Source: a virus (Duplodnaviria; Heunggongvirae; Uroviricota; Caudoviricetes). From it: DNA of 35,292 nt. The stretch lies in IMG/VR virus record IMGVR_UViG_2802429231_000009; one strand, written 5' to 3'. The notes below the pieces were generated by a model. That model was not told where the DNA came from and did not search any database. It saw nothing but the letters and a program-made list of their open reading frames with translations. A program made the translations under genes and the position numbers. Numbering within the stretch: the first letter of the stretch is position 1; every line of letters begins with the position of its first letter. Positions 1 to 3,340 of the stretch are shown here, one piece after another.

Positions 1-1053
1 TTACGGGGTAATGCCAACCGCTGCCGCCACTTTGTCGCCACTTGGCAGCGTTGCCAGAGGATTGAAACGGAGCGCCGTTTCCAGATGATCCGGTGCCAGA
101 TGTGCGTAACGCATAGTCATTTTTATATCGTGGTGTCCGAGAATTTTTTGTAAGGCCAGAATGTTTCCACCCGACATCATGAAGTGCGCCGCAAACGTAT
201 GGCGCAGAACGTGTGTGAGTTGACCGCGAGGGAGCACGATAGACGTTTTTTCCATCACGGATAAAAATTGAAAATAGCAGTCTGTGAAGAAATTGAACCC
301 ATCAAGCGCCATGATCTCTTCGTAAAGCTCTTTACTGATAGGGATGCTTCTGTTTTTCTTCCCCTTCGTTCTGACAAAGGTAATTCGGTATTTGGTCACC
401 TGTGAGCGGGTAAGATTTACGGCTTCACGCCAGCGTGCGCCTGTGCTTAAGCATATCTTAACTACCAGTGCCAGAATTGGGTCCTGACGTTTGCAATCAG
501 CCAGCAATTCAACAATCTGCTCATGGGTAAGCCATGCCATCTCTTTTTCTGCGATGGTGAATTTTCGCATGTTCTCCAGTGGGTTCGGATACGACCATTC
601 GCCCAGACGGGATAGTTCGCTAAAAACACTACTTAGATAGCTTTGCTCCAGGTTAATGGTGACCGGGCTTGCTCCTTTCTTCCATTTCTCGCTGAAGTAG
701 ATCTCGCCTGTCAGGCGTTTATCTCGATAGTGGGCAAACATTTTAGAGGTGAGATCGGTTGCAAGAGGATTGCCTAGAGCGTCAACCATCAGCAGCAATT
801 TGTCATAGACATGCTGTCCAGCAGTCAGAGATTTACCATGTAGTTTGAACCATAGCTCAACCACGTCTTTCAGGGTTCGACGATCCACTGATTCGCCCAG
901 CCAGGGCTTTGATTCGGTTTCTTCCATCGTGTGACGCTCAAAAGCCAGAGCTTCGCCTTTGGTGGCGAATTGTTTACGCACACGACGCCCACTTCGTCCG
1001 GCGGGGTAACATTCGCAAAGCCATTTCCCTGTGGTGAGTTTTCGTACTGCCAT
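1..1053 (-). CDS. int: Phage tyrosine integrase (P2/186 Int family)
   Basis: ORF on minus strand ending with TAA at 1-3. Chosen start ATG at 1051-1053 preceded by GGAGGG, giving N-terminus MAVRKLTTGKW typical of this family. C-terminal LRHTFAAH...MTMRYAHL fits the tyrosine-recombinase R/HxxR/Y catalytic region. Confidence 0.88.
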   Translation of the reverse strand: MAVRKLTTGKWLCECYPAGRSGRRVRKQFATKGEALAFERHTMEETESKPWLGESVDRRTLKDVVELWFKLHGKSLTAGQHVYDKLLLMVDALGNPLATDLTSKMFAHYRDKRLTGEIYFSEKWKKGASPVTINLEQSYLSSVFSELSRLGEWSYPNPLENMRKFTIAEKEMAWLTHEQIVELLADCKRQDPILALVVKICLSTGARWREAVNLTRSQVTKYRITFVRTKGKKNRSIPISKELYEEIMALDGFNFFTDCYFQFLSVMEKTSIVLPRGQLTHVLRHTFAAHFMMSGGNILALQKILGHHDIKMTMRYAHLAPDHLETALRFNPLATLPSGDKVAAAVGITP

Positions 1054-1241
1054 AAAAAATGCCCTCCAGTAGAGAGCATTTTTACTGTATGTATAACCAG
1101 TGTCAATGTATGAAATCCTACGACCATACATCTCACTGAAGCCATAATGAAGTTGGCTATTCTTTTTGCTATGTGAGCATGTAACTTTTGCGGTTAACCT
1201 GCGGCTCATTTTTATTTTAGACGCAGATATAAAAACAAAAG

Positions 1242-1433
1242 TTATCGTGAGTTTTTAGTACAGATTTTTTTGGATTTACTAATAGTTCCATCATTGCAAA
1301 CGAATTTGCCATCTGAGGTACAGTGAGAAACACCTCCCTTTTTCCCTGAGCAGGGATAATTTCTAGCATAGGTAGTTAGTGGGTTTAATAACAAAGAACA
1401 TGACAAAACCACAAAAAATACCTTACCAAGCAT
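1242..1433 (-). CDS. Small Cys-rich protein with N-terminal signal-peptide-like segment (possible moron)
   Basis: 63-aa ORF with strong GGGAGGA Shine-Dalgarno just upstream. N-terminus [23 protein letters not shown] is hydrophobic; mature part has 6 Cys. AT-rich, between int and cI. Confidence 0.4.
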
Positions 1434-1448
1434 AGTTTCCTCCCGGTA

Positions 1449-2105
1449 CTATTTAACATACTTGACTGTTAAACTTATAATTTTACCAATTATTTCAATG
1501 TCTTCTATCTTGCATTCGAAGGCTCTGTTTCCACCCTCGACGAAGATTCTTCCACCGGGTAAACGAGTAATGTCACGGATCGTTATTTCGCCATCAATAC
1601 TTATTACCCATTTACCATCACGTATATCATCAAATTCTTTATCACAAATAAATTCAGAATTGTTATCTGTGATGACAAAAGGTTTTTTAAACGTAGAGGG
1701 TAGAAATCCCTTATCAAAAATATAAAAACCGTCTTTCTGCAATGCTCCATCAGACAATAAATATTTTTCTACTTCTATAGTATTTGTATTTGCTGATGCT
1801 TGCTTTGAACCATGCCCTGTTGTTAGCCAATTAAGCGAGGTGCCCGTTTCAAGGGCGCACTGGATTACCCAATCTGCTGGAAAAATATCACGCATATAGC
1901 GCGTTGCCATGGTGCTCTTAGAAACACCTAAATGATCACAGAGAGCCTGACGAGTACCGAACCCATATGCTTCAACTAAACGTTCTATGGCTTTCTTACC
2001 GCCGCTATTGAAATCCACAAGTCCTCCAAAGAAATCCAAAATTCGTTGACAGATTCCAAAAGCGATCTTAAAGTTGAACCAGAAGTGTTCTTTTGGAGCC
2101 TTCAC
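1449..2105 (-). CDS. cI: Phage immunity repressor, 186 CI-like (HTH)
   Basis: 218-aa ORF, GTG start, divergent from apl-like gene. HTH-like segment ERLVEAYGFGTRQALCDHLGVSKSTMATRYMR. Position between int and apl/cII as in 186. Confidence 0.65.
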   Translation of the reverse strand: MKAPKEHFWFNFKIAFGICQRILDFFGGLVDFNSGGKKAIERLVEAYGFGTRQALCDHLGVSKSTMATRYMRDIFPADWVIQCALETGTSLNWLTTGHGSKQASANTNTIEVEKYLLSDGALQKDGFYIFDKGFLPSTFKKPFVITDNNSEFICDKEFDDIRDGKWVISIDGEITIRDITRLPGGRIFVEGGNRAFECKIEDIEIIGKIISLTVKYVK

Positions 2106-2948: not shown

Positions 2949-3245
2949 ATGCTGACGAAAGAACCATCATTTGCATCGCTGCTGGTAAAACAAAGCCCGG
3001 CAATGCACTACGGTCACGGCTGGATCATGGGTGAGGATGGTAAACGCTGGCATCCGTGCCGTTCACAAGATGAATTGCTGTCTGAATTGACCACGGGGAA
3101 ACGGAGAAAGTCAAAATGTATGCAGCGGAAAGTGAAGTGGTTTATCAGTTTCGTTACAGAGGGGAGAGTTATTCAGTACCTGAAGATGATTTGCTCTGTT
3201 GTTATCCGTCGTTGTCGGGCGATGGCAGTTACTTTTTCACGCTAA
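2949..3245 (+). CDS. Hypothetical early protein (Fil-like position)
   Basis: ATG at 2949 with GAGGTG upstream. N-terminal part looks protein-like, C-terminal part is low-complexity and overlaps the 3116 ORF in another frame. Confidence 0.3.
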   Translation: MLTKEPSFASLLVKQSPAMHYGHGWIMGEDGKRWHPCRSQDELLSELTTGKRRKSKCMQRKVKWFISFVTEGRVIQYLKMICSVVIRRCRAMAVTFSR

Positions 3246-3340
3246 AGGATGGGACGTTTTTACGGGGAGAGCAGGTTAAAGAGACGATACGAAAAAATGT
3301 ATCTCCTCTTGAACGTTACCGTAAGAACAAAGAACGATAG
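3116..3340 (+). CDS. Hypothetical early protein
   Basis: 74-aa ORF with ACGGAG RBS about 8 nt upstream; composition looks protein-like. Confidence 0.4.
   Translation: MYAAESEVVYQFRYRGESYSVPEDDLLCCYPSLSGDGSYFFTLKDGTFLRGEQVKETIRKNVSPLERYRKNKER

Follow-up and report, generated by a model that had tools for sequence, protein, structure and literature searches.

In the record of phage 186, the end of the repressor gene cI coincides with the start of the integrase gene int (22433), with nothing between them, and the promoter pL together with the CII-activated promoter pE is annotated as driving this cI-int lysogenic operon. The record of Vibrio phage K139 contains Glo, a 'periplasmic protein; involved in phage exclusion'. 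A third system relevant here is Dis2 of the Legionella Dot/Icm secretion machine. Close to the outer membrane, it occupies the edge of the secretion cap and touches the lipoproteins DotK, DotC, and DotD, but it is not required for assembly (PMC8486379; PMC12716638). Its protein-protein contacts are made away from the translocation channel (PMC12716638), and it was described as specific to Legionella and as having no structural counterpart (PMC8486379, PMC12716638). Here, we analyzed a stretch of 35,292 nucleotides (nt) of viral DNA assigned to the Caudoviricetes (IMG/VR record IMGVR_UViG_2802429231_000009, hereafter the window), and in particular a small open reading frame (ORF) on its minus strand between int and cI. 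This ORF is a real and strongly conserved gene of the functionally uncharacterised YdcA family, as is well supported by the evidence below, and we refer to it as the ydcA-like gene; its product is very probably an exported, disulfide-bonded, basic mini-protein that would be made in lysogens.

The original prediction, made from the DNA letters, had placed an ORF with a strong ribosome-binding site at positions 1242-1433, and both parts agree with our reading: the frame runs from ATG to TAA over 63 codons of the minus strand with exactly these boundaries, and a GGGAGG element precedes the ATG by 5 nt (Table 1). It had not recognised that the ORF belongs to a catalogued protein family. The product matches the NCBIfam equivalog model NF007463 (PRK10040.1-2) with 115.8 bits against a cutoff of 93, residues 5-63 covering model positions 1-58 of 58, and the family phrog_6000 at 1.9e-34, while its score on NF007462, a sibling model in the PRK10040 set that is presumably the K-12-type model, stays below the cutoff (68.5 vs. 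118 bits). A precomputed annotation with the Pfam domain PF27300 exists for nearly all homologues, including P0001, the representative of the cluster, which is 98% identical; the copy of Pfam used to scan the ORF lacked PF27300, and a sub-threshold match to a GULLO2-like domain was the sole match returned. RefSeq carries the identical protein (WP_000900883.1) as 'hypothetical protein' or 'YdcA family protein'. Its UniRef name 'Conjugal transfer protein' finds support in none of our analyses and is deemed an annotation artefact; likewise, the literature on 'ydcA' in Bacillus (a rhomboid protease), in a Neisseria genetic island, and on plasmids looks like name collisions, in the latter two cases presumably.

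Conservation across related prophages had been set beforehand as the test of the prediction, which withstands it: the gene was found in 648 of 5426 complete E. coli genomes, i.e., in approximately one of every eight strains. The copies fall into two main allele groups, which differ at 12 nucleotide positions, 11 of them synonymous and one leading to a conservative replacement (R24K). The ratio of nonsynonymous to synonymous substitution rates (dN/dS) between the E. coli alleles is 0.022 for the ydcA-like gene, as compared with 0.149 for cI and 0.016 for int. For homologues from other genera, dS is saturated, dN amounts to 0.10-0.18, and the 32-residue core retains 78-84% identity; the positions invariant in an alignment of 93 core sequences include P27, C28, K32, G33, G34, C38, F44, C46, G49, S52, S54, and C58 (numbering of the window protein). 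An exhaustive profile search retrieved 463 family clusters at 50% identity, a word-indexed search 1037 clusters at 90% identity, and the 120 best matches listed from a full-length alignment search were mostly single-domain proteins; an IMG/VR scan returned 80 near-identical copies, which we used for allele counts alone. These data show strong purifying selection on the ydcA-like gene. One could suspect an ORF that arose by chance in AT-rich DNA, or a hitch-hiker with no function, as the ORF is short and lies in a stretch of 35% G+C (GC) content, in which open frames occur less often but annotation cannot be relied on; the excess of synonymous differences between the alleles, the identity of the core across genera at saturated dS, and the breadth of the family leave this explanation a negligible probability, and the substitution pattern rules out a chance or decaying ORF.

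Export of the product was judged from comparative sequence evidence, namely the hydropathy profile and alignments of homologues. The N-terminus had been described as signal-peptide-like, and it indeed consists of the n-region MLGK, a hydrophobic core with 11-residue Kyte-Doolittle means of up to 2.8, and the tripeptide T-Y-A before the predicted cut, in agreement with the family pattern. In a full-length alignment of 30 homologues, the presequence of about 22 residues is variable yet hydrophobic, Ala23 at position -1 never varies, and the mature part hardly does. Among distinct N-termini of the family, 167 of 172 have an Ala 0-6 residues ahead of the conserved P-C, the -3 position is mostly A, S, T, or V, and the median peak hydropathy over nine residues is 2.86. 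The combination of a variable hydrophobic presequence, an invariant Ala(-1), and an abrupt onset of conservation suggests a signal peptide of the Sec pathway that is removed by signal peptidase I (SPase I), and we consider export and cleavage of the product highly probable. The claim of six cysteines in about 40 mature residues has to be corrected: the ORF encodes five in total (residues 12, 28, 38, 46, and 58), of which C12 belongs to the presequence and four to the mature 40 residues. The mature peptide of 4.3 kDa is strongly basic, with nine Lys or Arg against two Asp or Glu residues, a net charge of approximately +7, and an isoelectric point of 9.7. Its AlphaFold model has a beta-hairpin core, with a predicted local distance difference test score (pLDDT) of 87-93 over residues 31-60, and the four conserved cysteines in an exported domain suggest two disulfides.

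A lipoprotein is a further reading: Cys12 in the sequence VVLSC could be a lipobox cysteine, and the protein would then be tethered to the membrane like the exclusion lipoproteins Cor, Llp, and Ltp. The letters V-L-S-C do fit the last four positions of the PROSITE lipobox, a Yersinia homologue is named 'Lipoprotein' by UniRef, and a Cys occurs in 51 of 167 presequences. In bacterial lipoproteins, the lipobox Cys is typically found at residue 15-35 after an uncharged hydrophobic stretch; by contrast, the Cys of the window protein stands at residue 12, too near the N-terminus, Lys4 falls inside the stretch required to be uncharged, and the window contains no upstream in-frame start. Furthermore, the SLLL that follows Cys12 prolongs the hydrophobic core, and the presequence Cys is not conserved, whereas the Ala before the mature domain is invariant. 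The window protein thus lacks a lipobox by the PROSITE rule, and membrane tethering through Cys12 is very unlikely.

The ydcA-like ATG lies 15 nt downstream of the cI stop codon TAG (1449-1451). Since cI and int abut in phage 186, the ydcA-like gene is an insertion of approximately 380 nt relative to that phage, consisting of the ORF and a 188-nt spacer, and the moron-like place in the lysogenic operon that had been claimed for it stands. The GC content is 35% for the ORF, 36% for the spacer, 38% for cI, and 51.5% for the whole window; because cI is AT-rich as well, composition alone does not mark the gene out. A consensus scan found no promoter-like site on the minus strand of 1434-2018, and a scan for terminators found no terminator-like site on the minus strand of 1054-1241, where the first hairpin is that of the int leader; two weak terminator-like matches on the minus strand lie inside cI (around 1889-1904). 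Apart from these weak matches, no promoter- or terminator-like site interrupts the operon between the cI stop and int or between the cI start and the ORF, so the ORF should be made whenever the repressor is made.

The same arrangement recurs in other prophages. In a scan of family loci with one genome per species, which yielded 80 loci, about 23 loci were assigned to P2-like prophages by BLAST against the window proteins. The gene order CI, YdcA-like protein, zero to two further ORFs, and Int is found in three Yersinia species and three Pasteurellaceae, where CI is just 33-36% and Int 42-49% identical to the window proteins; the position is thus kept across distant repressors. In Buttiauxella, CI is followed by one ORF and the YdcA-like gene, and an integrase was not found downstream. 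In the Haemophilus phages HP2 and S2, a homologue of 60 residues, unannotated in both records, starts on the ATGA that ends cI and is followed by another ORF with a signal peptide and then by int. In the betaproteobacterial P2-like prophages, the gene belongs to a cargo cluster flanked by the early region and by the D-U-T tail genes, where it usually stands directly behind an unclassifiable gene; a Pfam scan left almost all of these upstream genes without a family. In another case, the cI-int slot of a 186-like prophage in E. coli FDAARGOS_1251 (NZ_CP069445; locus L168, 2697-4028) contains both a ydcA-like gene and a gene for a 443-residue KAP-family NTPase, which matches the candidate defence gene PDC-S20 of PADLOC at 2.4e-171 and, more weakly, PifA and QatA. 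Given this recurrence across prophages, the slot after cI is a recurrent cargo site with the ydcA-like gene as its most frequent occupant, and the cI-int slot is a cargo or defence hotspot. YdcA-like ORFs are also unannotated or mis-annotated in Moraxella phage Mcat23 (L165, 3501-3611) and Acinetobacter phage Ab11510-phi (L166, 3501-3599). As a separate observation on the chromosomal members of the family, ydcA appears disrupted in Shigella flexneri SFBU0723 (L137) and E. coli ECMA0423 (L163), with a signal peptide and first motif that are changed or no longer in frame; some lineages thus seem able to do without the housekeeping copy.

Most members of the YdcA family consist of a signal peptide and one domain, and some have two or three domains in tandem. 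Among 58 representatives of at least 100 residues, nine carry another Pfam domain, and five of these nine are secreted nucleases of three unrelated folds (Endonuclease_NS in three, SNase in one, and a PLD-type domain in one). The order in these fusions is signal peptide, YdcA domain, linker, and nuclease (P0115, P0177, P0184, and P0191); a sixth fusion, with a C-terminal region recognised as SNase-like by reading its sequence, occurs in a Methylococcales genome (L143). In addition, an SNase gene is the immediate neighbour on the same strand in three of the 80 species-level loci (L133, L135, and L155), while well under one such neighbour would be expected on the assumption that a genome has at most a few SNase genes among thousands. 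The fusions and the SNase neighbours therefore tie the domain to extracytoplasmic nucleic-acid metabolism, in which it could serve as a DNA or polyanion binder, as would fit its charge, or as an anchor. Other architectures were observed as well (L111, L113, L117, L126, L129-L131, L134, L140, L142, L147, L150, L158, and L161; P0080, P0082, P0233, and P0241). In the Providencia loci L104, L116, L141, and L145, the YdcA domain is followed by long Lys-rich repeats of the KEKATKA type; many Beta- and Alphaproteobacteria have the motif C-x-C...C-T-G-P-R-G-G-x-Y-C (Pfam PBCV_basic_adap) after it; and the Enterobacteriaceae also have tandem two-domain forms of about 130 residues.

A search of the full-length family profile against the PDB retrieved one protein, chain AN of 7MUC and 7MUD, with E = 4.2e-5, to which the signal peptide adds. 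This chain of the Dot/Icm structures is Dis2/Lpg0823 (PMC8486379). In Foldseek searches with both AlphaFold models, Dis2 was the first and the second match, with probabilities of 0.97 and 0.80 and with 38-44% identity over 27-39 aligned columns (1.8 Å over 27 columns in one alignment). Moreover, a Dis2 orthologue (P0324, P0325) has a precomputed PF27300 match, and a directed hmmsearch matched both lobes of Dis2 at 11-16 bits. Homology between Dis2 and the YdcA domain is thus probable on profile and model comparisons; Dis2, whose two lobes are similar to each other, appears to be built of two YdcA-like lobes. If the homology holds, the YdcA domain can act by docking to proteins on the inner side of the outer membrane, and Dis2 would have relatives across the Proteobacteria.

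We propose the following explanation, to which we assign as a whole a probability of roughly 55%. The ORF is accessory cargo, a moron in the loose sense, inserted into the cI-int junction of a 186-like prophage that is integrated next to rcdA in E. coli. Transcribed with the repressor from the lysogenic promoters, its product would be present in every lysogen; it would be translated from its own strong ribosome site, exported by the Sec system, cut after Ala23, and oxidized in the periplasm to a very basic mini-protein pinned by its two disulfides. The peptide would then act as a free binding module in the envelope, located on the periplasmic side of the outer membrane, binding a polyanion such as DNA, or both, and would alter what enters the lysogen. 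Such an envelope-acting binding module is reasonably probable. The specific reading that we prefer, with Glo of K139 as the analogue, is that the peptide interferes with phage or other foreign DNA as it comes in (superinfection exclusion). The exclusion or envelope role suggested in the original prediction is plausible, its best support being the analogy with Glo; as the leading specific function, exclusion of incoming DNA or phage is put forward tentatively. A plausible order of readings places the entry of foreign DNA or phage first, host fitness under stress second, and a nuclease-linked or DNA-binding role third. A broader version is fairly unlikely: outside the cytoplasm, the YdcA/Dis2 lobe would serve as a general module for docking in the outer-membrane-proximal periplasm, to DNA, or both. 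Bacteria would have joined it to a type IV secretion cap as well as to secreted nucleases, and temperate phages of several kinds would have repeatedly captured a free copy (the P2-like phages behind cI, the Moraxella and Acinetobacter phages in their late regions) with which they keep out foreign DNA, whether it arrives by superinfection, by transformation, or by conjugation.

Several observations weigh against these proposals, or at least against their most specific parts. Co-transcription of the ydcA-like gene with cI is likely, on the layout of the operon only. The copies in the Moraxella and Acinetobacter phages lie among late structural genes and on their strand, outside a lysogeny operon; therefore, phages of different types have acquired the family at different sites. 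Stable chromosomal members exist, such as ydcA of E. coli K-12 beside cybB, and others are found on small Acinetobacter plasmids and on Rhizobium plasmids; a general envelope function therefore fits these members better than a phage-specific one. The nuclease fusions are a minority, five of the 58 long representatives. As to Dis2, a domain-only profile against the PDB gives E = 0.32, no better than modules of the LDL receptor, and the Foldseek E-values are 0.1-0.4, so that the link is marginal line by line; the class A modules of the LDL receptor, which score like Dis2 in this search, were treated as cysteine-pattern noise. Glo is not homologous to the window protein (15 bits and E = 0.16 in a single pairwise BLASTP comparison), and therefore the analogy is positional and topological only. 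For the ORF, PADLOC-DB 2.0 returned zero families at E <= 0.01; no experiment on any YdcA-family member shows exclusion, and we found neither a characterised homologue of the window ORF nor papers on a P2-like periplasmic exclusion gene of the YdcA family.

The non-phage members invite an alternative in which the prophage gene does not act on phages at all and instead supplies an extra, constitutive copy of a housekeeping periplasmic stress factor, for example, for tolerance of acid or organic acids. Indeed, E. coli and its relatives keep a chromosomal ydcA with a core 78% identical to that of the ORF, and the family is present in many contexts outside phages. In E. coli W, deletion of ydcA sensitised the strain to 300 mM 3-hydroxypropionate (3-HP), and ydcA is reported to be acid-induced through YdcI (PMC7642389). 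The 3-HP phenotype was, however, overridden by deletion of yieP and left without an explanation (PMC7642389), and a role in host stress leaves unaccounted for both the repeated capture of the gene beside repressors of unrelated immunity types and the fusions to nucleases. We regard such a contribution to host fitness as possible though doubtful, and place it behind interference with incoming phage or DNA. A different proposal is that the domain is an extracytoplasmic module that binds nucleic acids or regulates a nuclease, and that the free copy binds DNA in the periplasm or outside the cell, or modulates a periplasmic nuclease of the host, thereby affecting extracellular DNA (eDNA), biofilm, or DNA uptake and not phage exclusion as such. 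It would account for the union of a signal peptide and a YdcA domain with three unrelated nuclease folds, for SNase genes among both the upstream and downstream neighbours, for the basic character of the peptide, and for phage-borne copies in the naturally competent Haemophilus, Moraxella, and Acinetobacter. In the left 9 kb of the prophage, which is the annotated part, no nuclease gene accompanies the ORF; furthermore, accessory domains of secreted nucleases can be anchors instead of DNA binders, and Dis2, the only relative with a solved structure, makes contacts with proteins and away from the channel (PMC12716638). A nuclease-linked accessory is rated unlikely.

Table 1. Positions of the ydcA-like gene and of the flanking features in the window.
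Feature	Positions	Strand	Basis
Tyrosine integrase gene int, last gene of the lysogenic operon; its stop codon lies at the window start	1..1053	minus	Pfam PF24624, PF00589; RefSeq
Spacer between ydcA-like gene and int, 188 nt	1054..1241	minus	alignment of three slot variants; GC 36%
13-bp hairpin between A and T runs, directly before the int ATG	1055..1083	minus	fold energy; slot-variant alignment
ydcA-like ORF, 63 codons plus TAA stop	1242..1433	minus	identical to RefSeq WP_000900883.1; sequence, NF007463, phrog_6000
Mature 40-residue peptide, codons 24-63	1245..1364	minus	four conserved Cys, two predicted disulfides
Predicted Sec/SPase I signal peptide, codons 1-23, cut after Ala23	1365..1433	minus	hydropathy and family alignment; cleavage site inferred
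Shine-Dalgarno GGGAGG, 5 nt 5' of the ydcA-like ATG	1439..1444	minus	direct sequence reading
cI repressor gene, 186 type, GTG start; presumed co-transcription partner from pL/pE	1449..2018	minus	Pfam PF07022, PF16452; RefSeq; operon annotation of phage 186
pR-like promoter TTGACA-17-TAAAGT facing the apl/cII early operon	2046..2074	plus	consensus scan; 186-like layout

The surroundings of the gene follow the 186 plan. To the right of cI lie the rightward genes apl/cox, cII, fil, and other early genes, and the pR-like site marks, by analogy, a switch region of the 186 type, from which the leftward lysogenic transcript would originate. The RefSeq record that is 100% identical to the window annotates the Fil-family gene after cII (about 2949-3104) as an incomplete pseudogene, and this gene is followed by a hypothetical ORF of 74 residues (3116-3340). 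A DNA search of the phage collection gave matches confined to the int leader and the 5' end of int, and no deposited coliphage in this collection carries the present cI or the present ORF. The int leader, of about 90 nt, is conserved in three slot variants and 96% identical in Klebsiella P2-like phages; judged from these alignments, the spacer is composite, its distal part of about 100 nt having come with the cargo and its proximal part of about 90 nt being the conserved int leader. The hairpin of this leader has a fold energy of -17.5 kcal/mol (z-score -5.8; none of 200 shuffles folds as well), is kept in all slot variants, with a change from U.G to C-G in one of them, and holds the int Shine-Dalgarno GGAGG (1063-1067) in its 3' arm. 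As a terminator-like element, it could attenuate the cI-ydcA transcript or bring it to an end, and cI-ydcA would then be the main lysogenic message. Just upstream of it, we noticed a promoter-like site, TTGACA-17-AAAAAT (1106-1078, minus strand); transcripts from this site would therefore begin inside the 5' arm of the hairpin, and pL read-through could be terminated or untranslatable for int, while the local start frees the int ribosome site. A plus-strand hairpin with a T-run (1188-1204) is a further terminator-like element of the spacer, with no obvious plus-strand gene upstream; it may have arrived with the cargo as a remnant, or it may block antisense transcription. A search of Rfam gave no match in 900-2400.

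A small periplasmic moron behind a repressor gene would hardly surprise a specialist; the value of the present case lies in a clean target and new leads. A gene carried by about one in eight sequenced E. coli strains, which probably shares its transcript with a prophage repressor and belongs to a family of several hundred clusters, has been turned from an anonymous ORF into a defined target, a peptide of 40 residues with two predicted disulfides that can be synthesised. The leads are three: the links to secreted nucleases, a probable relative of solved structure in Dis2, and a positional analogue annotated for exclusion in Glo of K139. In addition, the cI-int junction of 186-like prophages is marked as a cargo slot able to carry a candidate defence gene. 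Should free YdcA domains indeed dock in the envelope and block the entry of foreign DNA, they would form a new and widespread class of minimal periplasmic exclusion factors of 40 residues.

The phage moron concept of Hendrix and colleagues provides the general frame for comparison. The ydcA-like gene resembles a moron in being an extra gene between two genes that adjoin in the close relative 186, in its GC content of 35% against 51.5%, and in a placement suited to expression in the lysogen; it differs in lacking a predicted promoter or terminator of its own and in probably riding on the repressor transcript. The window protein and K-12 YdcA (b1419) share the plan of a variable Sec signal peptide followed by the four-Cys core, P-C-S-G-x-K-G-G-[VI]-x-x-C-x(3-5)-F-[VI]-C-x-D-G-[ST]-x-S-x-S-K-K-x-C. 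The former is a prophage-borne paralogue with a core identity of 78%, and its gene is part of a phage lysogeny operon, whereas the K-12 gene occupies a chromosomal locus. In K139 (Peduoviridae), a P2/HP1-like phage, the gene for Glo likewise lies between int and cI in a leftward lysogenic operon and its product likewise has a signal peptide; however, Glo is a protein of 137 amino acids that looks helical, is not pinned by cysteines, and has no sequence similarity to the window protein. Finally, each of the lobes of Dis2 contains C-S-K-x-G-G-I-x-Y-C...G-R-L-V-C-N-x-G-x-x-S, which matches the YdcA core, and Dis2 is, as would be the window protein, periplasmic and disulfide-pinned, with a location proximal to the outer membrane (PMC8486379). 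The two differ in that Dis2, with two lobes and five disulfides, is a stoichiometric component of a secretion machine, whereas the window protein corresponds to a single free lobe with four cysteines; its gene is surrounded by prophage genes and has no type IV secretion genes near it.

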